From the NCBI GenBank assembly GCA_963748015.1, contig CAVVHE010000005.1:448001-512000 (forward strand): a DNA stretch of 64,000 nucleotides, in the 5' to 3' direction. Numbering within the stretch: the stretch's first letter is position 1; every line of letters starts with the position of its first letter. The stretch comes from Terriglobia bacterium. Its GTDB lineage: Bacteria; Acidobacteriota; Polarisedimenticolia; Polarisedimenticolales; JAIQFR01. A program made the translations under genes and the position numbers. Of the stretch, positions 7,043 through 21,712 are shown piece after piece. Under the pieces are notes generated by a model. That model saw nothing but the letters and a program-made list of their open reading frames with translations. It did no database searches and was not told the DNA's origin.

Positions 7043-8535
7043 CTCGCGCGGAGCACGGCGACCGACTGGCGGGCGGCCACCACGAGCTCGTCCCTTCCGT
7101 CCCGGTCCAATTCGGCCGCCGCGAGGTCCACGATCCCGGGCCAGCGCGCGCGCCAGACGATTTCCCGCTTCGAGAGGTCCACGAGCGTCAGGAACCCGCC
7201 CTCCGCGAGCGCGACCTGCGTGCCGCCTCCGGGAAGGAAGCGGCCCGCCGCCATCGCGGCCACCGCACGGGAAGCGGTCCCGAAGCCGGCGCCCGGGTCT
7301 TCCCCGGCGGCGAGCCTCGCGTGTCCCGAGGGCGCCGGCGCCGTACGGTCGATCCGTCCCTCGAGGTCGCTCGAGCGAATCGTCCCGTCGGCGCCGAGAG
7401 CGAGCAGCCGCGCCGCGGCGCCCTTGCCTGCCGGCCGCACCGCGAGGGTCTCTCCCGTCCCCTCGACGCGGCGGATCCGCTTACCCTCCCGGTCGGCGAG
7501 ATAGAGGCCATCCGCGGCCGCGAGGACGAGCGCCCCTTCCGGCCGGGCGGGCGGCGACGCGTCGATCACCGCGACGTCGAGCACCGGCGAGGGGGCCGTG
7601 AACGAAGTCGTCTTCCCCGTCCAGGGATCCGAGATCGCGATCTCGACGCTCCCCGGCCGGAAGCCCACGAGCTCGGGCTGGCCGTTCCCGTCGAGGTCGG
7701 CCGCCGCGAGCCGGCCGGCGGCGCTCGTGGACCGCAGGCTCCTGGCGGTGCGCCCGCTCGGCTCGAACAGCGCGAGCTCCGGCCCCGCCTTCACCGCGAT
7801 CCGGGTGGCCTCGCCGGGAACCGGGATGGCCGCGACCCCGCTCACCGTGCCTCCGAGATCGCGCGCCCAATCCACACGGAGCCGGCCCGCCCCGGCGACG
7901 ACCTCGCCGAGAACGCGGCGCGGCCCCGCGGGATCTTCCTCGAGCAGCTCGCGCACGCGCGACGCGACCGTCTTCTCGAGTCCGGGCAGCCAGCCGTCCC
8001 AGCGCTCGCGGATTCTCCCGCGCCGGTCCGCCAGGAGGAGGAGGGGGAGCTGTCGAGGACGGAAGGCTTCTCCGACCGCTGGGCTCCAGGCCCCGACCGG
8101 CACGGTCAGCCTCAGGGACGACGCGGTGCGGCGCGCCGTCTCGACCGGCTCGTCCACGTTGACTGCGATCACCGCGAGGCCGCGAGGCTTCTCGGCCAGG
8201 TAGAGCTCCTGGAGCCGCGGCAGCTCCTGCATGCAGGGAGCGCACCACGACGCCCAGAAGTCGAGCAGCAGCAGGCTTCCCTGCGCCTGCGCCAGCGGCA
8301 GCGATCCGCCCGTGAGGAGAGGGATCGAAATCTCGGGGAGCGGCTCGAACCAGGCCGGAGCTTCGAGCGGAGTTCCGGCCGCGGGGGTCTTCCCCTCCCC
8401 GGCGGGTAGATCGACGCTCCAGGCGGCCGCGCCGCTGCCCGGCGGATTCCACGTGAGGCGCGTCGGCTCGGGCTCGGCGGCGGCCGCCAGCGACAGCAGA
8501 AGCAGTACGGAAAGGGGAGCGCTCGCGAGTCTCAT
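7039..8535 (-). CDS. Secreted TlpA/ResA-like thiol-disulfide oxidoreductase fused to an FG-GAP/beta-propeller-like region
   Basis: Signal peptide, DFWASWCAPC CxxC motif, C-terminal DLDGNGQPEL and ELDRDGRDELVV repeats. Confidence 0.75.
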   Translation of the reverse strand: MRLASAPLSVLLLLSLAAAAEPEPTRLTWNPPGSGAAAWSVDLPAGEGKTPAAGTPLEAPAWFEPLPEISIPLLTGGSLPLAQAQGSLLLLDFWASWCAPCMQELPRLQELYLAEKPRGLAVIAVNVDEPVETARRTASSLRLTVPVGAWSPAVGEAFRPRQLPLLLLADRRGRIRERWDGWLPGLEKTVASRVRELLEEDPAGPRRVLGEVVAGAGRLRVDWARDLGGTVSGVAAIPVPGEATRIAVKAGPELALFEPSGRTARSLRSTSAAGRLAAADLDGNGQPELVGFRPGSVEIAISDPWTGKTTSFTAPSPVLDVAVIDASPPARPEGALVLAAADGLYLADREGKRIRRVEGTGETLAVRPAGKGAAARLLALGADGTIRSSDLEGRIDRTAPAPSGHARLAAGEDPGAGFGTASRAVAAMAAGRFLPGGGTQVALAEGGFLTLVDLSKREIVWRARWPGIVDLAAAELDRDGRDELVVAARQSVAVLRAR

Positions 8536-8588
8536 GTGCCTGGCGATTCTAACCAGGGATCCCGCTTCGCGCACGCGGACCGGGAACG

Positions 8589-8789
8589 TCAGACGCGGGC
8601 TTCGCTCGACCGCCAGTGCAGGAAGATCTCGAACGCCTTCGAGGTCTCGATCTCGACGAAGCTCCGGTAGACCTTCCGGCGCAGCGGGTCGATCTGGTAG
8701 GTCCGATTCCCGAAGTCGAAGTTGATGACGCCGTTCTGCGCTTCCGCCTTCCGACGAGTGCTCTTGCGTGCCACGCTGCCGCCCTCCAT
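8589..8789 (-). CDS. Small hypothetical protein (66 aa or less)
   Basis: Protein-like composition (VINFDFGNRTYQIDPLRRKVYRSFVEIET), high-GC codon usage, fills the gap divergent from the sigma54 activator. Confidence 0.6.
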   Translation of the reverse strand: MEGGSVARKSTRRKAEAQNGVINFDFGNRTYQIDPLRRKVYRSFVEIETSKAFEIFLHWRSSEARV

Positions 8790-8822
8790 GCCGGACGCTG
8801 TCGTCGTCTTGTCCTTTTGTGT

Positions 8823-8838
8823 TTCAAATCCCGTACCA
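8823..8838 (-). promoter_or_regulatory. Possible sigma54 (-24/-12) promoter variant for the small gene
   Basis: Minus strand TGGTACG-GGAT-TTGAA; correct spacing but GA instead of GC at -12. Confidence 0.35.
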
Positions 8839-9034
8839 GGAATTCGCGGAACGCTTCGACGCGGTTCGCGACCGCGGGAAACTCAATGGGAATGCGGTCC
8901 GGAGAGAGACGGCGCCGTCCTGGCCGCTTGTCCGGGGCCGCGAGACCATCCGCCAAGCCGGTCACCCTGGCGCGCCAAGGCGCCGCAACTCCGCCAATGT
9001 GGCCGGATCGCCGCCATCCTTATATGATGGGTGC

Positions 9035-10456
9035 ATGTCGAGCGCGCCTCCGGGAAGCAAGGCCATCCTGGTGGTCGTCGAGGCCGCGGATCTTCGCGAC
9101 CGGGCCACGACGATCCTCGCGCGCTCGGGCTATCAGCCGACCCCCGTCGAGCGGGGGGATGAGGCGCTGCCGATCCTGCTCGCCCGCCACCACGACGCGG
9201 TGCTGCTCGACCTCGAGATCCGGACGACGGACGCTTCCGAGCTGCTCCGGCGATTCCGCCGGGACAGCCCCGGCACGCCGGTGCTGGTGCTCGCCGATCC
9301 GGCGAGACTCCAGGCCGCGGTCCAGGCGCTACGCCAGGGGGCGGAGGATTACCTGCTCCGCCCACCCGACCCGTTCGAGCTGCGCACGCGGCTCGGGCGC
9401 ATTCTCGAGCGCCACGACCTGGACTCCCGCATCGCGCTCCTCCAGGGGGAGCTTTCGAAGAACCAGGGCCTCAAGAGCCTGGTCAGCCGGTCCCCCGCGA
9501 TGCAGGCGGTCCTCGACCGCGTGCTGCGGATCGCGCCGCTCCGGGCGACCGTGCTGATCCACGGCGAGAGCGGCGTGGGCAAGGAGCTCGTGGCGCGCTC
9601 GATCCACTTCAACTCGCCGAGGCGCGAGTACCCGTTCATCGCGCTCAATTGCGCCGCGATGCCGCAGAACCTCATCGAGTCGGAGCTGTTCGGCCACGAG
9701 AAGGGGTCGTTCACCGGCGCGCACGCCCGCGCCCGCGGGAAGTTCGAGATCGCGCACCGCGGGACCCTCTTCCTCGACGAGATCGGCGAGATGAACCACT
9801 CGACCCAGGCCAAGCTCCTCCGGGTCCTCGAGGAGAAGGAGTTCATGCGCGTCGGGGGCGACCAGAGCATCCGCGTGGACGTCCGCGTGATCGCGGCGAC
9901 CAACGCCGACCTCGAGGACATGGTGGAGCGCTCGCTCTTCCGCCGCGACCTCTACTACCGGCTCAAGGTCCTGATCGTCCAGGTGCCCCCGCTCAAGGAC
10001 CGGCGCGAGGACATCCCGGTGCTCGTCGAGACCTTTCTCGAGGAGTTGTCCCGCGCCAACGCCGTCCGTCCGAAGACCATCGTGCCGGAGGCGCTTTCCG
10101 CGCTCGTCGCCTACCACTGGCCCGGCAACGTGCGCGAGCTGAAGAACATCCTCGAGAGCGTCCTGGTGTCGAGCGCCGGCGACGTCATCCGCCTCGACGA
10201 CCTGCCCCCGTCGGTCCGACGGGAGAGCGCGACGTTCGAGAAGCCGGAGGTCGCGGTGGGGATGACCCTCGAAGACATGGAGCGGGAGCTGATCCGGAGG
10301 ACCCTCGAGCACACGGGCGGCAACCGGACGCACTGCGCCTCCCTCCTCGGCATAGGCGTGCGGACGCTGCAGCGGAAGATCCGCGGGTTCGAGATCGACG
10401 TCCCGTCGAAGCGGCGGCGGCCGCGCCGGCGCCCGGTCGTGGACGCCGGGCGTTGA
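9035..10456 (+). CDS. Sigma54-dependent Fis-family transcriptional activator with atypical receiver domain
   Basis: GESGVGKE Walker A, ESELFGHEKGSFTGA, LFLDEIGE, WPGNVREL, C-terminal HTH; start taken at ATG 9035. Confidence 0.9.
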   Translation: MSSAPPGSKAILVVVEAADLRDRATTILARSGYQPTPVERGDEALPILLARHHDAVLLDLEIRTTDASELLRRFRRDSPGTPVLVLADPARLQAAVQALRQGAEDYLLRPPDPFELRTRLGRILERHDLDSRIALLQGELSKNQGLKSLVSRSPAMQAVLDRVLRIAPLRATVLIHGESGVGKELVARSIHFNSPRREYPFIALNCAAMPQNLIESELFGHEKGSFTGAHARARGKFEIAHRGTLFLDEIGEMNHSTQAKLLRVLEEKEFMRVGGDQSIRVDVRVIAATNADLEDMVERSLFRRDLYYRLKVLIVQVPPLKDRREDIPVLVETFLEELSRANAVRPKTIVPEALSALVAYHWPGNVRELKNILESVLVSSAGDVIRLDDLPPSVRRESATFEKPEVAVGMTLEDMERELIRRTLEHTGGNRTHCASLLGIGVRTLQRKIRGFEIDVPSKRRRPRRRPVVDAGR

Positions 10457-10556
10457 GGGCGGTCGCGAACGCCGTCGAGCGCGCCGCGGAGCGCGACGCG
10501 CTCGATGCGTCGCTCGAGTCGCGACGTCCGATTTCGCGCGACGACGATTTTCCATC

Positions 10557-10584
10557 TTGACTCTCCGCTGCGCTCCTTTATATT
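10557..10584 (+). promoter_or_regulatory. Sigma70-type promoter for micro-protein gene 1
   Basis: TTGACT-N16-TATATT. Confidence 0.6.
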
Positions 10585-10644
10585 CGACGTCGAAGTAGAC
10601 CAACGGCTGCCGGAAGCGGCCGAAGAGAGGAGGTGAGATCCAAC

Positions 10645-10707
10645 ATGGCGACCAAGAAGAAGGCGGCGAAGAAGACCGCGAAGAAGAAGGTAGCGAAGAA
10701 GAAGTAG
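10645..10707 (+). CDS. Lys/Ala-rich micro-protein MATKKKAAKKTAKKKVAKKK (20 aa)
   Basis: GGAGGTG RBS, ATG to TAG, own promoter and terminator, near-identical paralog at 18612. Confidence 0.8.
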   Translation: MATKKKAAKKTAKKKVAKKK

Positions 10708-10765
10708 GCTTCGAAGAACCACGTGGGGCTTCGGGCCCCTGACTCGGAAAGAAAAAAGATCTCAA

Positions 10766-10797
10766 GGGGACGCCGCCGGCGGCGTCCCCGTTTTTTT
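10766..10797 (+). terminator. Rho-independent terminator
   Basis: GGGGACGCCGCCGGCGGCGTCCCC palindrome followed by T7. Confidence 0.85.
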
Positions 10798-10808
10798 CCG
10801 GGGCACTC

Positions 10809-10836
10809 TTAACACCGCTTTAACCCGCCGTTAACC
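10809..10836 (+). promoter_or_regulatory. Candidate PHO box (three TTAAC direct repeats at 11-bp period)
   Basis: TTAAC at 10809, 10820 and 10831 directly upstream of pstB-phoU-phoB-phoR. Confidence 0.7.
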
Positions 10837-10878
10837 CCCCCGTTGCCTTCTTGTCGTCCAATGAAACGGGGGGATAGG

Positions 10879-11784
10879 ATGGAACTCGTGGAGAACGGCG
10901 CTCCCGGCGTGAAGATGGCGGAGGCGATGGGAGGATCCCAGCACCGGACGCAAGGCGCGGCTCGTCCGGAGGGAGGCCCGTCCGCGCTCGCGGCCGCCTC
11001 CGAGGAGGCGGCGGGACGCCAGCGCATCGAGAGCCCCGTCCTCGACGTCCGGTCCCTCTCGCTCTGGTACGGCGACTCCCGGGCGCTCGACGGCATCTCG
11101 CTCGAGATCCCGCCGAAGAAGATCACGGCGTTCATCGGCCCCTCGGGATGCGGGAAGTCCACGCTGCTCCGCTGCTTCAACCGCATGAACGACCTCGTCG
11201 GCGACGTCCGGATCGAGGGAGAGGTGCTCTTCGAGGGGACCAAGGTCTACGACCCCGGCGTGGACGTCACCGCGCTCAGGAAGCGGATCGGGATGGTGTT
11301 CCAGAAGTCGAACCCTTTCCCGAAGTCGATCTACGAGAACGTCGCCTACGGGTGCCGGATCCACGGCGTGAGGCGGCGCCACCAGCTCGACGAGACCGTC
11401 GAGCGGAGCCTCCGCGGGGCCGCTCTCTGGGACGAGGTGAAGGACCGCCTGGACGAGAGCGCTCTCGGCCTCTCCGGCGGCCAGCAGCAGCGTCTGTGCA
11501 TCGCCCGGGCGATCGCGGTGGAGCCCGACGTGATCCTGCTCGACGAGCCCTGCTCCGCCCTGGACCCGATCGCCACGGCGAAGGTCGAGGAGCTGATGCG
11601 GGAGCTCCAGGACCGCTACACGCTGGTCATCGTCACGCACAACATGCAGCAGGCCTCGCGGGTCTCGGACTACACCGCGTTCCTCTATCTCGGCCGCCTG
11701 GTGGAATTCGGGGAGACCGAGAGGCTCTTCCTCAATCCGTCGAAGAAGCAGACGGAGGACTACATCACCGGCCGCTTCGGATAG
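10879..11784 (+). CDS. pstB: Phosphate ABC transporter ATP-binding protein
   Basis: [51 protein letters not shown]. Confidence 0.95.
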
Positions 11785-11869
11785 CCCGGCGGCGGGGTTC
11801 CGGTCCCGCGGCGCTTGACGGTAGACTCTTCCCCGGTAGTGCCGCCGAGGCGCCCGCGGAGAAAGGCCC

Positions 11870-12565
11870 ATGGAACGACGCGTACGGCATTTCGAGGAGC
11901 AGCTCGACCTCCTCACGGAGAAGATCCTCCTCCTCGGCGGACTGGTGGAGCAGGCGATCGGCCGCTCGGTGGACGCCCTCGTCGGACGGGACTCGGACGT
12001 GGCCCGCCTGGTGATCGCGAACGACGCCGAGGTGGACCGGGTGGAGCTCGAGATCGACCGGATCTGCATGGAGACGCTCGCACTCCAGCAGCCGTTCGCG
12101 CGCGATCTCCGGTTCATCACCACCGCGATGAAGATCACGACCGATCTCGAGCGGATCGGCGACCTCGCCGTCAACGTCAGCGAGCGCGCCCTCGAGCTGA
12201 ACGAGGAGCCCCAGCTGAAGCCGTTCGTGGACCTGCCGCTCATGGCGCGGCGGGCCCAGGAGATGGTCCACGGGGCCCTCGACGCCTTCGTCCAGCGGGA
12301 CGCGATCGCCGCGCGCGCGGTGATCGCGATGGACGACGACCTCGACGCGAGGATGGAGCAGATCTTCCGGGAGCTGCTCTCGTTCATGGTGGAGGAGCCG
12401 AAGTCCATCACGCGGGCCCTCCGCCTGACCTTCGTGGCCAAGTACTTCGAGAGGATCGGGGACCAGGCGACCAACGTCTGCGAGCAGGTGGTCTACATGT
12501 GCGAGGGGCAGGTGATCAAGCACCCCTGGCTCGCCTCCGACCACAAGGACGAATCGGCGGGATGA
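11870..12565 (+). CDS. phoU: Phosphate signalling complex protein PhoU
   Basis: QQPFARDLR, DLERIGDLAVN and ERIGDQATNVCE tandem PhoU repeats. Confidence 0.95.
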   Translation: MERRVRHFEEQLDLLTEKILLLGGLVEQAIGRSVDALVGRDSDVARLVIANDAEVDRVELEIDRICMETLALQQPFARDLRFITTAMKITTDLERIGDLAVNVSERALELNEEPQLKPFVDLPLMARRAQEMVHGALDAFVQRDAIAARAVIAMDDDLDARMEQIFRELLSFMVEEPKSITRALRLTFVAKYFERIGDQATNVCEQVVYMCEGQVIKHPWLASDHKDESAG

Positions 12566-13251
12566 AACGGATTCTCCTGATCGAGGACGACGCGGACATC
12601 GCCCTCTCTCTCCGGTACAATCTCGAAAGGGACGGCGCGTTCGAGGTCGCGACGGTCCGCGACGGCGAGGACGGCCTCCGGGCCGCGCTCGAGCGCCCGC
12701 CGGACCTCGTCCTCCTGGATCTCAACCTGCCCGGAATGGACGGCGTCGAGGTGTGCCGACGTCTCCGCGCAGCGAAGTCCACGTCGGAAATCCCCATCAT
12801 CATGATCACGGCCCGCGCCGAGGAGTCCCAGCGCGTGAGCGGGCTCGACCAAGGGGCGGACGACTACATCACGAAGCCATTCTCGCTCCGCGAGGTGCAG
12901 GCGCGGGTCCGGGCGGTGCTCCGCCGCGCAGGGCCCGAGGCCGCGGAGCGCGGATCGCTCTCGGACCCGCCCCTGGTCCTGGATCTCGAGGCCCGCCGCG
13001 TGATCGTCGCAGGACGGGAGGTCGCCCTCACTCGGAGGGAGTTCGACCTACTGGCCGATCTCCTCCGCCATCGCGGCCGGGTCCGGACGCGCGAGCGGCT
13101 GCTCGAAAAGGTCTGGGGTTACGACTTTCCGGGCGAGACGCGGACCGTGGACGTCCACGTTCGACGGCTGAGGCAGAAGCTCGGACCGGAGATCGAGCCG
13201 CGCCTCGAGACGGTGGTCGGCGTCGGCTACCGCTGGCGAGGGAGCGAATGA
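12562..13251 (+). CDS. phoB: OmpR-family response regulator PhoB/PhoP
   Basis: MKRILLIEDD receiver, LLDLNLP, GADDYITKPF, winged helix RTVDVHVRRLRQKL; ATGA overlap with phoU. Confidence 0.85.
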   Translation: MKRILLIEDDADIALSLRYNLERDGAFEVATVRDGEDGLRAALERPPDLVLLDLNLPGMDGVEVCRRLRAAKSTSEIPIIMITARAEESQRVSGLDQGADDYITKPFSLREVQARVRAVLRRAGPEAAERGSLSDPPLVLDLEARRVIVAGREVALTRREFDLLADLLRHRGRVRTRERLLEKVWGYDFPGETRTVDVHVRRLRQKLGPEIEPRLETVVGVGYRWRGSE

Positions 13252-15002
13252 GGATCCGCCACAAGCTCCTGGTAGCGCTGCTGGCCACCGCTCTCGTCGC
13301 CTCGGTGGCCGTCGGGTTCGGCTCGGCGCGGCTCCTTCACTCCGCCGTCGGGGGCCGCTTCGCAGAGAGGATCCGCTCCGAGATCGCGCTGCTGGCCGCT
13401 TCGGCCGCGGTCCGGATACCCCCGGAGGGCCCGGAGGCCTTCGCGAGGGAAGCCGGGAGACTTCTCGGGGTCCGCGTGACCCTCATCGGCGCCGACGGTG
13501 TCGTCGTCGGGGACTCCGCGGAGTCCGAGGCCGACCTGCCCGCGATGGAGAACCATCTCTCCCGTCCGGAGATCGTCGAGGCCGGCCGCGACGGGCTCGG
13601 CGAAGCCACGCGGGTGTCGCGCAGCACCGGCATCGAGTACTTCTACACGGCGCGCCGCGTGGAGGGGAAGGGCCCGGTCGCCTACGTGCGCATCGCGCTT
13701 CCGACCTCGCGCGTCCGGCAGGTCGAGACCCACTACCTCTGGCTCATGGGCGGCGTCACGCTCGGTTCGCTCCTGGCTCTGACCGCGATCGCCTACGTCC
13801 TCGTCCGCCGCCTCTCGAGGCCGATCGAGCACATGAGCCGGTCCGCCGACCGGACCGCGTCGGGGGATCTGTCGTCGGAGGTCCCGTACGAGGGGACGGA
13901 CGAGCTGGCGCATCTCGCCGCGTCGATCAACCGCATGAAACGCGCGCTCGTGGACAAGATCGCCGAGCTCGATTCGGAGCGAGCCGTCCTGCGCTCGGTC
14001 GTCAGCGGGATGAAGGAGGGCCTCCTGCTCGTCGGGCCCGACCGGCGGATCGAGCTGGCCAACGACGCGTTCCGGCAGATCTTCGGGGTCCCGTTCGATC
14101 CCTCGGGACACCTTCTGGCCGAGGCGATCCGGAATCCCGCGGTGATCCGGGATCTCGACCGGGCGCTGGGAGAGGGCTCCGAGGTGATCGACCTGGTGCT
14201 TGAGGCGGCGGATTCGGGCCGTTCGTTCGAGGTCCACGTCACCCCCCTGCCGGCGAGGCCGTCGGGGCTGCCGGGGGGAGCGCTCGTGCTGTTCTTCGAC
14301 GTCACGCGCCTTCTCGCCCTCGAGAGCGTGCGGCGGGACTTCGTCGCCGACGTCTCGCACGAGCTCCGCACGCCCCTCACCTCGATCCGCGCGTTCGTGG
14401 AGACCCTCCTCGACGGCGGGATCGAGGACCGCGAGAACGCGACCCGGTTCCTCGAGATCGCCCGGAGGCACACCGCCCGCATGGAGGCCCTGATCGACGA
14501 CCTCACGGACCTGTCCCTGATCGAGACCGGCTCGATCGAGCTGGTCCGGGAAGAGGTGGACGCCGGCGAGCTCGCCCGCGAGGTGGCGGGCGAGGTCTCG
14601 CTCCGCCACGCGGCGGCGGGCGTCGCCATCGAGGTGGATTTTCCCTCGCCGCTCAGGATAGAGGCCGACCGCAGGCGGCTGACGCAGGTCCTCGTCAACC
14701 TCGTGGACAACGGGATCAAGTTCAACCGCCCCGGCGGGTCCGTTCGCATCGTGGGGCGCATCGAGGACGGAAGGCCGACGATCGTCGTCGAGGACACCGG
14801 CACGGGAATCCCGTCGGAGAGCCTCGAGAAGATCTTCCACCGCTTCTACCGGGTGGACAAGGCCCGCTCGCGCGACCTCGGCGGGACCGGCCTCGGCCTC
14901 GCGATCGTCAAGCACCTGATGCGACTGCACGGCGGAACGGTCCGCGCGGAGTCCGAGCTCGGCCACGGCTCGAGATTCGTCCTGGAATTCCCCCCCGCCT
15001 GA
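13248..15002 (+). CDS. phoR: Sensor histidine kinase PhoR (TM-Cache-HAMP-PAS-HisKA-HATPase)
   Basis: MENHLSRPEI, RRDFVADVSHELRTPLTSI, FYRVDKARSRDLGGTGLGLAIVKH. Confidence 0.9.
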   Translation: MRIRHKLLVALLATALVASVAVGFGSARLLHSAVGGRFAERIRSEIALLAASAAVRIPPEGPEAFAREAGRLLGVRVTLIGADGVVVGDSAESEADLPAMENHLSRPEIVEAGRDGLGEATRVSRSTGIEYFYTARRVEGKGPVAYVRIALPTSRVRQVETHYLWLMGGVTLGSLLALTAIAYVLVRRLSRPIEHMSRSADRTASGDLSSEVPYEGTDELAHLAASINRMKRALVDKIAELDSERAVLRSVVSGMKEGLLLVGPDRRIELANDAFRQIFGVPFDPSGHLLAEAIRNPAVIRDLDRALGEGSEVIDLVLEAADSGRSFEVHVTPLPARPSGLPGGALVLFFDVTRLLALESVRRDFVADVSHELRTPLTSIRAFVETLLDGGIEDRENATRFLEIARRHTARMEALIDDLTDLSLIETGSIELVREEVDAGELAREVAGEVSLRHAAAGVAIEVDFPSPLRIEADRRRLTQVLVNLVDNGIKFNRPGGSVRIVGRIEDGRPTIVVEDTGTGIPSESLEKIFHRFYRVDKARSRDLGGTGLGLAIVKHLMRLHGGTVRAESELGHGSRFVLEFPPA

Positions 15003-15008
15003 CGCACA

Positions 15009-15174
15009 GACCGGAAGCTCACCTCCGACCTCGACCCGAAGCGGCCCTCTTTTCGAGCGGCCGGTTCTTCCTTTAAAGGCCGCGAGAAAAGCGGAGCAAG
15101 GCGGAGCGGCGACGTTAAGCCGCGATCCGCCGCAGCGTGCCGCGCGGGTCGAGGTCGGAGGTGAGCTTCCGGTC
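15009..15174 (-). repeat. Structured intergenic repeat, copy 5 (166 bp, inverted)
   Basis: Perfect 30-bp inverted arms 15009-15038/15145-15174; core nearly identical to the reverse complement of copy 1. Confidence 0.9.
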
Positions 15175-15188
15175 CCCGGCGCGATCGA

Positions 15189-16004
15189 TCAGCGCGGGGC
15201 GTCGGGGCGGAGCTGGAGCTGGACGGATTTCGGGACGTGCGGCACGGGAACGGGGAGCGGCGGCGGGCTCCCCACCTTCGCGATGCGGATCTTCGTCACC
15301 GTGATCGGCTCGATCGGCCTGCCGGTTCTCGTGGAGGTCTTCACCTCGCTGATGCGTTGGGCCACGTCGAGCCCCGACACCACCATGCCGAAGCAGGGGT
15401 AATTCCGCGTCAGGAACGACGTCGTCCAGGGAGTGATCACGAACTTGACGCCGCTGATCCGGTTCCCCACCGAGCGGATCATGCCGAGCCGCCCGGGAGC
15501 GGAGAAGTCCACCGGACCGTCCCCTTCCTGCGGCACGTAGAAGGGCGCCGAGTACCGGCCCGCGTCGGTCCTCTCGCCGAGCTCGACGCGCTCCGAAGCG
15601 ATGGCGCGCGACACCAGCTGTCCGTCGTAGTAGGGCTCGTGGCGCGGCTCGCCGCTGACGGGATCGGGCCAGCCGAGACGGCCTTCGGCGAGCGCGGCGA
15701 AGTGCGCGACCGACTGGGGCGCCTGGTCGGGCAGGAGACGGGCGACGATCGTGCCCATGCTGGTTTCGATCCGGGCGTACCAGCCTTCCTGCAGGTCCTT
15801 CGGCAGCGGGACGGCCTCGCCGGCGACGGGCGAGGTCGGCGAGAGCGAATAGGGCGCGGGTGCCGGAGAGGTAGCGGGCGCGGTCGCAGCCGCGGGCGCC
15901 GGCGGGGCGGGAGGGGGAGACGCGCCGGGCTCGCCGCCGACGGTCCCCGACAGCGCGAGGACCGCGACGATGGAGGCAAAGAGACTCCGCGTGCCCGTGC
16001 TCAT
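15189..16004 (-). CDS. Secreted cyclophilin-type PPIase homolog (divergent active site)
   Basis: Signal peptide, ARIETSMGTIVARLLPDQAPQSVAHFAALAEG, FGMVVSGLDV. Confidence 0.8.
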   Translation of the reverse strand: MSTGTRSLFASIVAVLALSGTVGGEPGASPPPAPPAPAAATAPATSPAPAPYSLSPTSPVAGEAVPLPKDLQEGWYARIETSMGTIVARLLPDQAPQSVAHFAALAEGRLGWPDPVSGEPRHEPYYDGQLVSRAIASERVELGERTDAGRYSAPFYVPQEGDGPVDFSAPGRLGMIRSVGNRISGVKFVITPWTTSFLTRNYPCFGMVVSGLDVAQRISEVKTSTRTGRPIEPITVTKIRIAKVGSPPPLPVPVPHVPKSVQLQLRPDAPR

Positions 16005-16029
16005 CCGCCCACTCCCCCGTCTTCCGCGA

Positions 16030-16758
16030 CTACGGCTTGGCTTCGGGCTTACCCTCGGCGGGCTTCGTCTCCGCGGCCTTCTTGGCCTCGCCCTTCACGA
16101 CGGTGGCCTTCTTGATGAAGTCGAGCTGCGGGAATTGCGCCGCGAGGTACTTGTTCCCCTCGTTCTGGACCTTGCTCTGGTCGGGTCCCCGGCCGCGAGG
16201 CGCGCCCTCGCCGTACTCGGCATAGAGACCGTCCACGACTTCCATCCCCTCGACGATCTTGCCGAGCGGAGAGAATCCCTGCCCGTCCAGGAACGAGTTG
16301 TCGGTGTAGTTGACGAACAGCTGCGTGGTGCGGGTATTCGGCCCCGCGGTGGCGAAGGTGAGCATTCCCCTCTTGTTGCTCTCCTTGACGGGGTCGTCGG
16401 GGATGCTCGCTCCCCGCCAGACGGCGGAGACGGCGGGGTCGCCGTGGATGCCGAACTGGGCCATGAAGGGCCGCGGCTGGCGAATGACGCGGAAGAACCT
16501 CACCTCGTCGTAGTACCCGCTCTTGACCAGGTTATAGAAACGGTCGGCCCCGTTCGGCGCCCAGGCGCGGTTCACCTCGACCACGAAGTCGCCCTTGCTC
16601 GTCTCGAACTTCACCCGGAAGGCGTCCGGCGCCTTCTCGTTGAGCGCAGCGGGATTCATCAGCTTCTCCTTCGCCGTGCCTGCTGCGGGGGCCGCGAACG
16701 TCGCCGTCATGGCGAGCGCAAGCACCGGAACGAGCACGGCCAACGGGGTGGCTCTCAT
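16030..16758 (-). CDS. Secreted cyclophilin-type peptidyl-prolyl cis-trans isomerase
   Basis: WAPNGADRFYNLV, FFRVI, FMAQFGIHGDP, AGPNTRTTQLFVN, FSPLGKIVEGM. Confidence 0.9.
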   Translation of the reverse strand: MRATPLAVLVPVLALAMTATFAAPAAGTAKEKLMNPAALNEKAPDAFRVKFETSKGDFVVEVNRAWAPNGADRFYNLVKSGYYDEVRFFRVIRQPRPFMAQFGIHGDPAVSAVWRGASIPDDPVKESNKRGMLTFATAGPNTRTTQLFVNYTDNSFLDGQGFSPLGKIVEGMEVVDGLYAEYGEGAPRGRGPDQSKVQNEGNKYLAAQFPQLDFIKKATVVKGEAKKAAETKPAEGKPEAKP

Positions 16759-16933
16759 CGGGATCCTCCTCGGCGGGAACTCCGGGGCTAGCGAAACCCC
16801 GCGAATCCACGCACGGCGTTGCATCGTACCCCCCGCTTCCGGGCGGCGCAACCGGCCTTGAACGCCCGGGACGCGGGACCTATATTCCGAGCCGAGGCCG
16901 GGCGAGTACCAGTGTGGCCAGCGGGGAGGACGA

Positions 16934-18442
16934 TTGCCCCAGCTCGACGGGATGCTCCGTGCGCTTGCGGATCGAGGGGCGAGGGAGCTGCGCCTGACGG
17001 ACGGCGCGCAGCCGGTGTTCTCCTACGCCGACGGGGAGCGCGCGGTCTCGCCCTCGACGCTCACGCGCAGCCAGATCGTCGCCCTGGTCTCCGAGATCGC
17101 CCCCGCGGACGACGCGCGCCGGCTCTCGGCCGGGGAGCCCGTCCGGTTCACCTACCGCCTGAGCGACGGCAAGTCGTTCGCCTTCTCGTCCGCGGTGTCC
17201 GGCGGCACGCTCGCGGTCCTCGCGACGCTCGCCACCGCGGTCTCGGCCGCGCAGGACGCAACGGCGGCGACGACGTCTCCCGCTCCGGCCGGCCAGCCTC
17301 CGGCCGCGACGACCGCCCTCGGACCCAAGCCGTTCGACGCCGCGGCGATGCGCCCCGGGGCCCCGGCGATCGAGGCGTACCTGACCTACCTGTTCGAGAC
17401 GGGGGGCAGCGACCTGCACATCTCCGCGGACGAGCCGCCGATGATGCGCCTCCACGGGGAGATGTTGCGGATCCCGGGCACGGGCCCGTGCTCCCCGGAG
17501 GAAACCGCGCGCCTCCTCTTCCCGCTCATGCCCGCGCGCTACAAGAAAGAGTTCGAGTCCGCGTCGGATACCGACTTCGCCCACGAGATCCCCGGCGTGG
17601 CCCGGTTCCGGTGCAACGTCTTCGCCGACCGCAAGGGCGCCGGCGCCGTGTTCCGCGTGATCCCCAGCAAGATCCCGACCGTGGAGGACCTCGGCCTCGC
17701 GAAGGCGATCCTCGACCTCTGCTTCCTTCCGAAGGGGCTCGTGCTGGTGACGGGGCCCACCGGGTCCGGCAAGTCCACGACCCTGGCGAGCCTGGTCGAC
17801 CACATCAACCGCAACCGGTCCGATCACATCATCACGATCGAGGACCCGATCGAGTTCGTCCACCCCAGCCGCAAGTGCCTCGTGAACCAGCGCGAGGTCG
17901 GGACCCACACCGCCAGCTTCAAGACCGCGCTCCGCGCCGCGCTGCGCGAGGATCCCGACATCGTCCTGGTCGGAGAGATGCGCGACCTCGAGACCGTGGC
18001 CATCGCGATCGAGACGGCGGAGACCGGGCACCTCGTGTTCGGCACCCTCCACACCTCGACCGCGCCGTCCACCGTGGACCGCATCATCGACCAGTTCCCG
18101 CCCGACCGGCAGGCCCAGATCCGCGTGATGCTCTCGGAGTCGCTCAAGGGCGTGATCTCGCAGGTCCTGCTCCGCAAGAAGACCGGAGGACGGGTCGCGG
18201 CGATGGAGGTCCTCATCGGCGTGCCCGCGGTGGCCAACCTGATCCGGGAAGGCAAGACCTTCCAGATCCCGAGCATCATGCAGGCCGGCCGCAAGCACGG
18301 AATGGTCCTGATGGCGGACGCCCTCCTCGATCTCGTGCGGCGAGGGGTCGTCACGCCCGAAGAAGCGTTCGCGAAGTGCGTGGACAAGATGTCGCTCCTC
18401 ACCCTCTTCAAGGGCGCGAACATCGATTTCGCCGCGCCGTAG
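16934..18442 (+). CDS. pilT: Type IV pilus retraction ATPase PilT with N-terminal extension
   Basis: SDLHI, GPTGSGKSTT, TIEDPIE, ALREDPDIVLVGEMRD, GHLVFGTLHT, NLIREGKTFQI. Confidence 0.9.
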   Translation: MPQLDGMLRALADRGARELRLTDGAQPVFSYADGERAVSPSTLTRSQIVALVSEIAPADDARRLSAGEPVRFTYRLSDGKSFAFSSAVSGGTLAVLATLATAVSAAQDATAATTSPAPAGQPPAATTALGPKPFDAAAMRPGAPAIEAYLTYLFETGGSDLHISADEPPMMRLHGEMLRIPGTGPCSPEETARLLFPLMPARYKKEFESASDTDFAHEIPGVARFRCNVFADRKGAGAVFRVIPSKIPTVEDLGLAKAILDLCFLPKGLVLVTGPTGSGKSTTLASLVDHINRNRSDHIITIEDPIEFVHPSRKCLVNQREVGTHTASFKTALRAALREDPDIVLVGEMRDLETVAIAIETAETGHLVFGTLHTSTAPSTVDRIIDQFPPDRQAQIRVMLSESLKGVISQVLLRKKTGGRVAAMEVLIGVPAVANLIREGKTFQIPSIMQAGRKHGMVLMADALLDLVRRGVVTPEEAFAKCVDKMSLLTLFKGANIDFAAP

Positions 18443-18496
18443 TCCGCCTCCCGCGCCGCGTCGGCGGAGCGCCGCGGCCGGACCTCCAAAAAACTC

Positions 18497-18524
18497 TTGA
18501 CATCGAGGGGGAGCCCTATATATT
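18497..18524 (+). promoter_or_regulatory. Sigma70-type promoter for micro-protein gene 2
   Basis: TTGACA-N16-TATATT with an upstream A-tract; same geometry as 10557-10584. Confidence 0.7.
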
Positions 18525-18611
18525 GGGCGCTGATCTGGAGATGGTCCCAGATCTTGAGCCCCATGGCCCGGGGTAGGGCTCAACGGTGGACCCGGGATAG
18601 GAGATCGACAG

Positions 18612-18677
18612 ATGGCTACGAAGAAGAAGGCCGCCAAGAAGACGGCGAAAAAGAAGGTAGTGAAGAAGAAGAAGTAG
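18612..18677 (+). CDS. Lys/Ala-rich micro-protein MATKKKAAKKTAKKKVVKKKK (21 aa)
   Basis: AGGAG RBS, ATG to TAG, promoter and terminator; synonymous differences from the 10645 paralog. Confidence 0.8.
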   Translation: MATKKKAAKKTAKKKVVKKKK

Positions 18678-18705
18678 TCTTCGCCACCAAGAAATCTCAG
18701 TACCG

Positions 18706-18746
18706 AACGGAGAGGGCCGGCGCACGACGCCGGCCCTCTCCGTTTT
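18706..18746. terminator. Terminator hairpin between convergent genes
   Basis: AACGGAGAGGGCCGGCG-cacga-CGCCGGCCCTCTCCGTT followed by TT. Confidence 0.8.
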
Positions 18747-18761
18747 CGGCTCGCGGAACGA

Positions 18762-19202
<441 letters not shown>

Positions 19203-19410
19203 CGGCCTCCTCCCCGCCTGCCTCCCGGCTTCGTCGGAGGCGGCTTGCGACAGTCTAGCGTCACCCGCCCCGGCGGGACGAGCGCCCCGGTCGACCGCGC
19301 AGGCAGGGGGGGCTTGACATGGAAGTGCTTCCGCCATACATGGATCGGCGGGGGAGGGGGGCCGGACTCCCGGTCCGGCCGAGGGAAGAGGCCCGGAGCA
19401 TCGTGACCGA

Positions 19411-20214
19411 ATGAAGGACAGCAGCGGCAGCAACCCGAAGAAACGGTCGCCGGGATACCGGGGGGCGCTGCATCGCTATCTCGAGTCGATCCGGGACTAC
19501 GAGTTCCTGACGCCCAGCGGCGAGTTCAAGATCGCCACGCGGGCCATGGAGCAGGACCAGGCCGCCCGGAACGCGCTGGTCGAGGCCAACCTTCGCTTCG
19601 TCGTGAAGATCGCCCACGAGTACCGGAGCTACGGCACGCCGATCGAGGACCTGATCAGCGAGGGCAACCTCGGCCTGATGGAGGCCGCCCGCCGCTTCGA
19701 CCCTTCCCGCCGGGTCCGCTTCAGCAACTACGCCGCCTGGTGGATCCGCAAGTTCATGGTCGCGGCGCTGAGCCGCAACGTCGTCCAGGGCTCGTCGCTG
19801 TCGCCCACGCCTCCCAAGCCGAAAGACGCTCCGGCCGGGAGGACGTCGGCCGCGGCGCAGAAGGACGCCCCCCGCCGGCCGGCGAGGCAGAAGCTGATCT
19901 CTCTCGAGGCCTTCACGAGGGTCGACGGCGACCGCGGCATCCTGGAGAGGCTGGCGGCCGACGTCGAGGACCCGAACGAGCTGATCCTCCACCAGGAGCT
20001 GGCGGACGCCATTCGCGGCATCCTCCCCTTCCTGCCGAAGCAGGAACGGCTGATCCTGACGACGCGCTACGGGCTGGACGGCGACGTGCCGCTGACGCTC
20101 CAGGAGCTCGGCCGCGCGCTCGGCTGCACCCGGGAGCGGGTCCGGCAGCTCGAGGTGAAGGCGCTGGCGCGGGCGCGCCGGCTCCTCCTCGCGAGGGCTC
20201 CCCGGCAGAAGTAG
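19411..20214 (+). CDS. RNA polymerase sigma70-family factor (RpoD/RpoS/RpoH-like alternative sigma)
   Basis: Region 1.2 YLESIRDYEFLT, region 2 NLRFVVKIA...DLISEGNLGL...RFSNYAAWWIR, region 4 TLQELG...TRERVRQLE. Confidence 0.9.
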   Translation: MKDSSGSNPKKRSPGYRGALHRYLESIRDYEFLTPSGEFKIATRAMEQDQAARNALVEANLRFVVKIAHEYRSYGTPIEDLISEGNLGLMEAARRFDPSRRVRFSNYAAWWIRKFMVAALSRNVVQGSSLSPTPPKPKDAPAGRTSAAAQKDAPRRPARQKLISLEAFTRVDGDRGILERLAADVEDPNELILHQELADAIRGILPFLPKQERLILTTRYGLDGDVPLTLQELGRALGCTRERVRQLEVKALARARRLLLARAPRQK

Positions 20215-20216
20215 GG

Positions 20217-20293
20217 GCTGCGTCCTCGGCGGGGTGCGTTCTCGCCGGCCCGGAAAAGGGCCGTCTGCGAACGCACCCCGCCGAGGACGCAGC
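20217..20293. repeat. Long perfect hairpin between convergent genes (terminator or truncated repeat relative)
   Basis: Perfect 25-bp inverted arms 20217-20241/20269-20293 with an internal GGCCC-GGAAAA-GGGCC hairpin. Confidence 0.75.
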
Positions 20294-20314
20294 GTCCGGG
20301 GACGGGAGGGCGGC

Positions 20315-21712
20315 TCAGCTGACGAGCTTGTTCTTGCTCCAGCGCGGGCTCTTGATCTCGTACTTCGCGACCTTGTAGTTCATCACCCGTGACGAGATCC
20401 CGAGGAAGCTCGCCGCGTCCTTCTGCACCCAGTTGCTGATCCGCAGGGCCTCGAGGATCGCGAGCTTCTCGAGGTCGTCGAGGTTGATCCCGTTGGGAGG
20501 GAGCCGCAGGTTGAGCGAGGTCACGTTGTCCCCCGCGGGCGACGCGGCGCCGGCCGGGAACAGGTTGAGGTCCTCGTCGTTGATGAAGTGGCCCTCGCAC
20601 ATCAGGACCGCCCGCTCGATCGCGTTCTCGAGCTCGCGGATGTTCCCCGGCCACGTGTGGCGCTTCAGGCTCTTGACCGCGTTCGGCTCGAGGCCCCGAA
20701 CGTCCTTCTTCAGCTCCGCGGCGAAGCGCTGGATGAAGTAGCTCGCCAGCGGGACGATGTCTTCCTTCCTCTCGCGAAGCGCGGGGACCTTGAGGTTCAC
20801 CACGTTGAGGCGGTAGTAGAGGTCCTCGCGGAAGTCGCCGCGCCGGACCTCGTCCTCGAGGTTCTTGTTGGTGGCGGCGACCACGCGGACGTCCACCTTG
20901 ATCGTCCGGGAGCCGCCGAGCCGCTCGAACTCGCGCTCCTGGAGGACCCTCAGCACCTTGGTCTGGGTGGACGCGCTCATGTTCCCGATCTCGTCCAGGA
21001 AGAGCGTCCCCTCGTTGGCCAGCTCGAACCGGCCGGTCCGCTGCCGGTCGGCCCCGGTGAAGGCCCCGCGCTCGTGGCCGAACAGCTCGGACTCGAGCAG
21101 GCTCTCGTGGAGCGCCGCGCAGTTCATCTTCACGAACGGGCGGTCGGCGCGGCTGGAGTTGCGGTGGAGCGCTTCCGCGACGAGCTCCTTCCCGACGCCG
21201 GTCTCCCCGAGGATGATCACGGTCGCGTTGGAGCGCGCGACCTTCTCGATCGTGCGGAAGACTTCCTTCATCTGCGGGCTCTCGCCCACGATGTTCTCGA
21301 ACTTCGGGATGATCGTCTCGCGGTCGTAGGCCTGGAGCCTGACGATGAGGCGGCGGTGCTCGAGCGCCCGCTCGACCTTCATCTCGAGCTCCTCGAGGTC
21401 GAACGGCTTGAGCGCGTAGTCGAACGCGCCGGCCTTCATCGCCTCGACGGCGGACTCGACGGTGCCGTAGGCGGTCATCACGACCGCGACGGTCCCCTCG
21501 TTGAGCATCTTGCAGCGCTTCAGGACCTCGAGGCCGCTCCGGTCGGGCATCTTGTAGTCGGTCAGGAGGACGTCGAAGACTTCCTCCTCGAGGCGCGCGA
21601 TCGCCTGCCCGGCGTCCGCGGCTTCGGAGACCTGCCAGTCGCGGTCGCGGAACGCCGCGGCGATCCCCTCGCGAAGGGTCGGTTCGTCCTCGGCGACCAG
21701 GATTTTCTTCAT
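20315..21712 (-). CDS. Sigma54-dependent response regulator (NtrC/AtoC family)
   Basis: MKKILVAEDE receiver, LLTDYKMP, GETGVGKE, GHERGAFTGA, WPGNIRELEN. Confidence 0.92.
   Translation of the reverse strand: MKKILVAEDEPTLREGIAAAFRDRDWQVSEAADAGQAIARLEEEVFDVLLTDYKMPDRSGLEVLKRCKMLNEGTVAVVMTAYGTVESAVEAMKAGAFDYALKPFDLEELEMKVERALEHRRLIVRLQAYDRETIIPKFENIVGESPQMKEVFRTIEKVARSNATVIILGETGVGKELVAEALHRNSSRADRPFVKMNCAALHESLLESELFGHERGAFTGADRQRTGRFELANEGTLFLDEIGNMSASTQTKVLRVLQEREFERLGGSRTIKVDVRVVAATNKNLEDEVRRGDFREDLYYRLNVVNLKVPALRERKEDIVPLASYFIQRFAAELKKDVRGLEPNAVKSLKRHTWPGNIRELENAIERAVLMCEGHFINDEDLNLFPAGAASPAGDNVTSLNLRLPPNGINLDDLEKLAILEALRISNWVQKDAASFLGISSRVMNYKVAKYEIKSPRWSKNKLVS

Follow-up and report, generated by a model that had tools for sequence, protein, structure and literature searches.

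The question raised by this locus is whether a lysine-rich open reading frame of 21 codons is a gene and, if so, what its product might do. We analysed a window of 64,000 nucleotides of Terriglobia bacterium DNA, for which a preliminary description had reported two such micro-ORFs. The frame in question, copy B (18612..18677, + strand), encodes the 21-aa peptide MATKKKAAKKTAKKKVVKKKK, with 12 lysines and without any acidic or aromatic residue, and its counterpart, copy A (10645..10707, +), encodes the 20-aa peptide MATKKKAAKKTAKKKVAKKK; both were defined by ORF reading and codon comparison, and both are unannotated. The copies lie 7,967 bases apart, in agreement with the earlier statement that they fall within 8 kb. 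They had also been said to agree over their first 16 residues while using different codons, and all of the codon differences named are present. Over the 19 codons after the start, A and B differ by six synonymous changes and one non-synonymous change (pS 0.51, pN 0.022, binomial P = 4.2e-4).

The selection on the peptide proposed from this pair is borne out within the genome by that test and across relatives by a third-position bias. The same peptide is encoded by 18 of the 20 distinct 19-codon copy-B sequences, and the pairwise differences among copy-B sequences fall mostly at third positions (846, compared with 129 at first and 57 at second positions), counts for which the search patterns had fixed the first five codons. 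These data bear directly on the possibility that the ORF is a chance opening inside a purine-rich non-coding element. Its one point of support is that none of the 13 peptides looked up is present in a collection of 15 billion proteins, an absence that is expected since gene callers skip ORFs of such size. Against it stand the third-position bias, length changes by whole codons, the use of all three stop codons across the loci, and the finding that other frames are open in at most 15 of 23 loci. The codon evidence already refutes a chance ORF, short of direct protein detection, and we regard that explanation as hardly credible.

When the 4.83-Mb genome was scanned in six frames for short lysine-rich ORFs, A and B were the only stand-alone frames recovered with a Shine-Dalgarno sequence; ribosomal proteins and a separate H1-like protein of 143 aa were also listed. 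The suggestion of a multi-copy family is thus narrowed to just two stand-alone copies in this genome, which form an ancient two-locus pair within a far wider set of look-alikes. The gene for the 143-aa protein (G000:C4:1646693-1647124, +, G000 being this genome) encodes a Lys/Ala tail followed by a Pro-rich acidic end; its product matches the HC2 profile weakly (22.1 bits), and similar proteins occur in G013 and G019 (L030, L376).

Each of the selected ORFs lies in its own unit of promoter, Shine-Dalgarno sequence and terminator. Copy B is preceded by a sigma-70-type promoter, TTGACA-N16-TATATT (18497..18524, +), with 11 of 12 consensus matches, and copy A by TTGACT-N16-TATATT (10557..10584, +); the 16-nt spacer recurs in 22 of 23 B loci and 19 of 23 A loci. 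Of the same promoter geometry claimed for both copies, the 16-nt spacer and the TATATT element held, but the -35 element of copy A is TTGACT and not TTGACA. The two promoters are the best among four sites found in 9500-19500 (shuffle mean 0.5), and both belong to the 24 near-consensus sites (TTGACN-N15-18-TATANT) of the 4.83-Mb genome, a list that also contains the rRNA leader and the start of a GroES-like gene. By sequence reading, the Shine-Dalgarno element of copy B is AGGAG (18599..18603, +) and that of copy A is the extended AGGAGGTGA (10628..10636, +); GGAGGTGA-N4-10-ATG occurs 19 times in the genome.

Copy A ends in an intrinsic terminator called by the terminator scan (10766..10797, +). 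For copy B, folding gives a strong terminator-like hairpin of 14 bp (18709..18745, +; hairpin 18709-18741, -34 kcal/mol, region z = -6.65), turned towards the convergent dCMP deaminase gene. It has only a short T tail and was passed over by the terminator scan, so that the terminator attributed to this copy stands only in part. The architecture suggests that both copies are monocistronic. One metatranscriptome, available as contigs only, contained 5% of the words, and at 80% likeness the matches came from mixed organisms and gave no usable signal. We also observed TTAACA/TTAACC words repeated directly behind the copy-A terminator (window 10809-10840), upstream of the stretch that leads to a phoB/phoR-like pair; these are possible regulator boxes, and similar words follow A in G001 and G021.

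The position of the two copies was followed across relatives. Upstream of B is an open frame with a PilT/PilU-family ATPase (16934..18442, +; TIGR01420 over cut-off) and downstream is a convergent gene of the dCMP deaminase family (18762..19199, -; PF00383), while the upstream neighbour of A is an open frame with a sigma-54-dependent response regulator (8768..10456, +; profile match); synteny supports all three assignments. Between the copies lie two tandem cyclophilin-type peptidyl-prolyl isomerase genes (window 15189-16851, -). The peptide pattern matches 34 of 61 relatives, in some of them within longer proteins, and promoter-anchored patterns yielded 23 A loci and 23 B loci, with one false B match removed. 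The match dropped was a different, 188-aa gene in G029, and the true B of that genome was found beside the deaminase. Flanks of about 1.5 kb, some of them ended by contig ends, place pilT before B in 18 of 24 entries and the dCMP deaminase behind it in 18; for A, whose synteny was judged on its upstream side, the sigma-54 regulator precedes the copy in 14 of 23 loci.

As a check independent of any peptide pattern, we located the dCMP deaminase in 109 of 119 class genomes and read the adjacent DNA in 14 further genomes of the order and 20 genomes of the class. The 14 order genomes comprised five with an intact ORF, one with a late frame break, six without the whole unit, in which pilT abuts the deaminase, and two that were unreadable. 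Relatives without the start, stop or frame had been named as what would speak against the preliminary description, and no locus had kept its flanks yet lost only the start or stop codon. Among all 39 order genomes, 28 carry B (27 of them an intact frame, one with a late frame break), in most cases between pilT and the dCMP deaminase; six cleanly lack it and five were unreadable. A long Lys-rich A-type ORF is present in five of the six genomes that lack B; in G029, B is present but the regulator is not followed by A, and in G027 no A was seen and the B interval is cut off. Outside the order, a B-like ORF was present in two of the 20 fetched genomes, and both copies are present in G043. A and B are therefore ancient paralogs at two fixed loci, and the presence and absence of the copies across the order and the outside genomes make the pair at least as old as the order, with either copy losable. 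Several A copies end in cysteine (L175, L176, L177, L179 and L206; the end is KKC, with KKCCC in G004 and KKKKKC in G043) and B copies never do; the cysteine end of A could allow disulfide dimers or metal binding.

The gene order around B also bears on whether the peptide could be a lysine-sensing leader peptide, an attenuator for a downstream gene, as its runs of Lys codons followed by a hairpin might suggest. Unlike attenuator leader peptides, copy B has no co-directional lysine operon downstream: the gene after it is convergent both here and at 17 of the 18 B loci with a downstream deaminase (G011 is the exception). The neighbours include no lysine pathway gene, and an ortholog length of up to 171 aa is not that of a leader peptide. 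We give this explanation next to no weight.

The orthologs at these two loci vary widely in length. Those of B are 15-34 aa in the pattern set and reach 58 (G029), 125 (G013), 125 (G019) and 171 aa (G025), and those of A are 15-30 aa and reach 98 (G037), 115 (G035), 126 (G013) and 148 aa (G008). The micro-peptides are thus positional orthologs of repeat proteins of 58-171 aa. The long forms are built of xxKKK/xxKRK pentamers such as TAKRK, ATKKK and TTKKK, and in the window peptides and the fully read long orthologs the repeat runs up to the stop codon, with no separate C-terminal domain. The promoter is retained in the long forms; judged by eye, the leader core persists in most B forms and the 3' motif, in some version, in most, both being described below. 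In two loci (L339, the B of G035, and L338, the A of G036) a frame break lies near the end and the repeat goes on in another frame, by assembly error or slippage.

The occurrence of 15-171 aa orthologs at the same loci is the main evidence for the identity of the micro-peptide, which it places at the short end of a repeat protein resembling the tail of histone H1; the 20-residue peptide is probably a miniature of a histone-H1-type DNA-packing protein. A homolog search with a 125-aa ortholog returned 52 proteins, many of them marked PF07382 (HC2) or PF02201 (SWIB) and one named 'histone H1-like repetitive region-containing protein'. Neither the 20-21 aa peptides nor the 115-171 aa orthologs had a match in Pfam or NCBIfam. 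A 56-aa look-alike scored 20.3 bits on HC2 (cut-off 40) and 13.9 and 11.3 on curated Hc2/H1-like profiles (cut-offs 80 and 135). PDB sequences contained no solved chain matching at E up to 10, a search in which a 21-aa low-complexity query has little power, and in the ESM Atlas the 115-aa ortholog was placed near clusters without a name (0.96) and a cluster with 15% HC2 (0.93), results of low recognition value. An Hc2-like action may be proposed by analogy, below the profile cut-offs that define Hc2 membership, and matches among low-complexity Lys/Ala proteins can be convergent.

The likeness to known polycations is closest for Hc2 (HctB; PF07382; NF038052) and the Burkholderiales H1-like family (NF038053), which also carry lysine-rich pentamers with Ala/Val/Thr/Pro spacers. 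According to the accessible part of PMC2848022, lysine-rich pentamers give chlamydial Hc2 a length range of 165 to 237 aa, and the protein binds and condenses DNA. The present family likewise changes in length by gain and loss of repeats, here from 15 to 171 aa at syntenic loci. It differs from Hc2 in the size of the short forms (20-21 aa against 165-237 aa), in having three basic residues per pentamer where the accessible text gives two for Hc2 (PMC2848022), and in its lack of a conserved C-terminal domain, its two paralogs and its scores below every curated cut-off; nor is it known to be tied to a developmental cycle. Lys/Ala/Thr pentapeptide repeats are also shared with Streptomyces DdbA and HupS, in the portion of PMC3643593 available, and with the xxKKK tails of SWIB proteins; the same portion describes the H1-like pentapeptide domain of DdbA as binding and condensing DNA in vitro (PMC3643593). 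In DdbA, HupS and the SWIB fusions the repeat is part of a larger protein, whereas here it is the whole product, with its own promoter and terminator.

In the two loci checked, L090 (Gemmatimonadales in its title) and L001, SWIB proteins have an N-terminal tail of these xxKKK repeats; in L090 the SWIB gene starts about 130 bases away from a 20-aa micro-ORF. A SWIB search of this genome gave no match, and its control was likewise silent. The genome has a stand-alone SET-domain protein over the Pfam cut-off (G000:C5:181377-181676, +, L373), encoded 285 kb from the micro-genes and without a Lys-rich neighbour, which is a possible modifier of the peptide.

The two paralogs change together. The identity of the A and B peptides is 0.85 within a genome (19 genomes) as against 0.69-0.71 between genera, and the within-genome likeness is supported by permutation with one genome per genus (9 genera, p = 9e-5; at most 2.5e-4 over 20 redraws). 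With 13 genera, long forms included, the first 14 residues match at 11.2 positions within and 8.7 across genomes, a likeness reached by 0 of 200,000 permutations. Over these 13 genera, which are not independent and in which two of the long lengths are shortened by a contig end or frame break, A and B are also correlated in length (rho 0.84) and arginine content (rho 0.83). Silent four-fold sites differ at 70 of 136 positions (0.515) within genomes and at 923 of 1642 (0.562) across genera, which is saturation. In three long pairs the exact tracts shared by A and B measure 56, 44 and 41 nt, lengths reached by 0, 9 and 21 of 300 codon shuffles, so that conversion tracts at silent sites are seen in one or two of the three; none was found in the 19 short pairs (lowest p about 0.1). 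We rejected recent gene conversion between the copies of the window: silent sites are saturated within genomes, and the tract shared in this genome is 12 nt compared with 13.2 under the null.

Occasional gene conversion followed by purifying selection fits this co-variation most simply, and parallel selection on length and charge is an alternative compatible with the same data. Concerted evolution that lasts long is called rare among prokaryotes in the accessible part of PMC6053082, and tufA/tufB are duplicated genes for which it is reported (PMC6053082; PMC5485169). As with tufA/tufB, the paralogs of one genome are closer to each other than to their orthologs in other genera. Unlike tufA/tufB, the short-form coding tract is only about 60 nt, its silent sites are saturated, and conversion tracts occur only in long forms.

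The untranslated regions of A and B had been called unrelated, and this is true of the 5' leaders (identity 0.49 between the copies, 0.64-0.66 among orthologs) but not of the 3' UTRs, in both of which a 13-nt motif, CAANAVANNTCAG, precedes the terminator. Motif comparison places it as CAAGAAATCTCAG at 18688..18700 (+) in copy B and at 10753..10765 (+), with two mismatches to the consensus, in copy A. It is exact in 17 of 23 A loci and 14 of 22 B loci (shuffle expectation at most 0.13) and within one mismatch in 20 of 23 and 18 of 22, counts that are partly circular since the motif was defined by eye on those same loci. Of 30 metagenome B loci that played no part in defining the motif, many of them from one genus-like group and some repeating genome loci, 20 carry the exact motif and 25 have it within one mismatch. 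The metagenome loci derive from 57 stretches, from which duplicates and sequences not rich in Lys were removed; 30 were retained for this count and 29 for the loop-to-tail count given below. The genome has seven occurrences of a looser form, of which, judged by eye, those of the two micro-genes alone are followed by a terminator.

We rejected pairing of the 3' motif with the rRNA leader. The rRNA leader of this genome has a 2-mismatch copy and a 2-mismatch complement of the motif upstream of boxA (G000:C4:236101-236114), which is at chance level and not conserved, the bases differing in the leaders of relatives. Pairing with the B leader or the Shine-Dalgarno sequence of A, judged by eye, was dropped for want of covariation.

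Conservation of the motif in both paralogs while the remaining UTRs diverged raises the possibility of a dual-function RNA, whose 3' motif beside the terminator would be a seed or protein-binding site with the main function, the peptide being secondary. A conserved Leptospira sRNA catalogued as non-coding, LIC1nc80, may be cited in its favour, as far as the accessible part of PMC13224635 goes. The strong codon-level selection on the peptide argues against a secondary role for it, and the motif is confined to the lineage: within one mismatch it was found in three of 110 short ORFs among the matches listed in a cross-phylum scan, all three titled Acidobacteriota. The RNA also matches no Rfam family, and the rRNA-leader pairing of this genome is not conserved. 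We consider this explanation very unlikely.

The leader of copy B is a further RNA element. It comprises hairpin P1 (18532..18553, +), with the nearly invariant CCAGATCT in its 3' strand, and hairpin P2 (18554..18583, +), taken from the centroid fold; 94.9% of cells are paired in P1, with one pair changed on both sides, and 86% in P2, with two such pairs. In 41 aligned B leaders, 89.6% of cells pair compared with 37-49% in slid controls, and change on both sides is seen in 12 cells (reached by 0 of 500 shuffles) and four pairs (reached by 34 of 500). Variation is absent from most paired columns, and RNAalifold returned P1 in part and P2 not at all. The alignment gives moderate support to a conserved two-hairpin leader.

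In addition, the P2 loop (18567-18572) could pair with 18591-18596, ending 2 nt before the Shine-Dalgarno sequence, to form a candidate pseudoknot helix (18567..18596, +). A loop-to-tail helix of at least 5 bp is present in 44 of 51 leaders by a register-free count, 21 of these at p<0.05 against shuffled tails, and cognate loop-tail pairs beat swapped pairs in 14 hand-picked leaders (p = 0.005); in more distant families the helix is weak. A pseudoknot beside the copy-B Shine-Dalgarno sequence is thus plausible.

The leader of copy A has a hairpin (10604..10622, +) found by folding, with a sequence unrelated to the B leader, and similar hairpins of changed sequence were seen by eye in A loci. 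Rfam gave three sub-threshold matches in 8000-21000, none of them on the B leader. A leader model, R1, run on 119 class genomes found 17 genomes of two families, all of which had been used in building it, and two borderline cases elsewhere, with no sign of the B leader ahead of other genes. The leader is also present in L047, L087 and L117, records titled as Acidobacteriota or Terriglobia MAGs. Another locus, L216, has a 9-aa ORF (MAKKKKAKK) under a promoter of its own. Its leader opens with the CCAGATCTTG core and goes on to a P2-like hairpin, but the 5' strand of P1 is missing, which suggests that the core matters as sequence, beyond its part in a helix strand.

The main alternative to a DNA-packing role is that the peptide binds RNA, as an accessory ribosome-associated basic protein, a general RNA chaperone or a damper of translation, with the B leader as a feedback site like those of ribosomal-protein leaders. 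Tiny basic ribosomal proteins such as bS22, bTHX and eL41 have about 20-30 residues, are very basic and are missed by gene callers, so that size and charge agree; they are also Arg-rich and of fixed length, whereas the short forms here are almost pure Lys and the orthologs span 15-171 aa. No match to a family or solved chain of these proteins was found in Pfam, NCBIfam or the PDB sequences with a 21-aa query of low power. The candidate pseudoknot beside the Shine-Dalgarno sequence and the exact conservation of the peptide within a genus, which suits a defined binding site, argue for an RNA target, as would the high RNA affinity of Hc2, which in the available part of PMC2848022 binds RNA better than Hc1 and represses translation. 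The likeness to Hc2 therefore leaves DNA unfixed as the target.

The 16-nt promoter spacer is the same as that of the rRNA promoter of this genome, but it is common here, being present in 10 of the 24 near-consensus promoters. An ortholog length range of more than tenfold at one locus fits a fixed ribosomal pocket badly, no solved chain matched at E up to 10, and the strict peptide pattern, which misses variants, is present in just 26 of 401 genomes of the phylum. We consider RNA binding unlikely as the main role, though deserving attention.

The reading that we prefer, with slightly better than even confidence, is that of an abundant disordered polycation that would coat the DNA of the nucleoid, as judged from the sequences and from analogy with H1-like proteins. 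Both micro-genes would be expressed strongly and constitutively. The first methionine is removed when alanine is at position 2, and such removal would leave 20 residues with 12 lysines. This unstructured basic peptide, built from xxKKK pentamers and the shortest of the Hc2/H1-tail-like proteins at the same loci, may bind the phosphate backbone whatever the base sequence, and may neutralise charge and bridge DNA within the nucleoid in the manner of a protamine or polyamine. The two copies may be kept for dosage and for separate control, that of copy B through its structured leader. Several points count against the nucleoid reading, among them that a pure charge role does not explain the exact conservation of the peptide within a genus, that the genome has the separate 143-aa H1-like protein, and that no family cut-off was reached.

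Composition alone (K 58%, A 28% and T 6% among the 110 short ORFs listed in the cross-phylum scan, the pattern of which demands lysines) would also suit an encoded polycation for another polyanion, such as polyphosphate granules, anionic lipids or condensates, in effect a polyamine substitute. Freedom in length fits any role based on charge, and sequence reading reveals neither a signal peptide nor a hydrophobic stretch, so the peptide should stay in the cytoplasm. However, the longer orthologs resemble DNA-binding proteins, the same tails occur on SWIB domains, and the annotated neighbours include no polyphosphate or lipid genes. We judge another polyanion to be quite unlikely as the target, and coating of nucleoid DNA remains our preferred reading.

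Similar micro-genes occur well beyond the order. A scan of 185,579 species genomes found at least 119 loci, and the matches listed include 110 ORFs of 13-37 aa in 108 loci. Among these 110 ORFs, 106 have an SD-like word and 80 a terminator-like hairpin, by lenient rules applied with no shuffled control to a pattern that itself selects short Lys-rich ORFs. The titles of 80 loci listed include Acidobacteriota, Methylomirabilota, Gemmatimonadota, Eisenbacteria, Planctomycetota, Verrucomicrobia, Bacteroidota, Proteobacteria, Bdellovibrionota, Dormiibacterota, Moraniibacteriota and several archaeal groups. One look-alike, a 22-aa ORF at L078, is in a record titled Vineibacter terrae strain CC-CFT640. 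In other phyla, at L049, L104, L148 and L161, micro-ORFs occur as near-identical tandem pairs, so duplication recurs outside the order. Bacterial H1-like polycations were known already. In the main texts of the open-licence literature we found no account of these micro-genes or of the B leader, though small-ORF catalogues could list them; neither a free-standing form of 20 residues nor a two-locus pair changing in concert, nor the RNA elements of such a pair, turned up there.

Should the peptide be produced and bind the nucleoid, many uncultured lineages would possess an abundant DNA-packing protein that escapes present methods: ORFs of 20 codons are skipped by gene callers, profile searches filter the peptide out, and trypsin, to judge from the sequence, would leave pieces too small to detect. 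In this order the two loci also provide a natural length series, 15 to 171 residues, in which the minimal working length of an H1-like polycation can be tested. The joint change of the paralogs, together with the 3' motif common to both, suggests that dosage is controlled for a gene absent from annotations. A more far-reaching and rather unlikely extension is that of a minimal, length-tunable chromatin system, in which a free-standing 'histone tail' gene would have been duplicated before the order radiated and kept in long-lasting concerted evolution, both copies lengthening or shortening in step (15 to 171 aa), with dosage controlled at the RNA level by the peptide or a partner that reads the 3' motif and the copy-B pseudoknot. 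If that were true, the Lys/Ala micro-genes of 13-37 aa in many bacterial and archaeal phyla and the full-length H1-like proteins would together form one overlooked class of nucleoid proteins.
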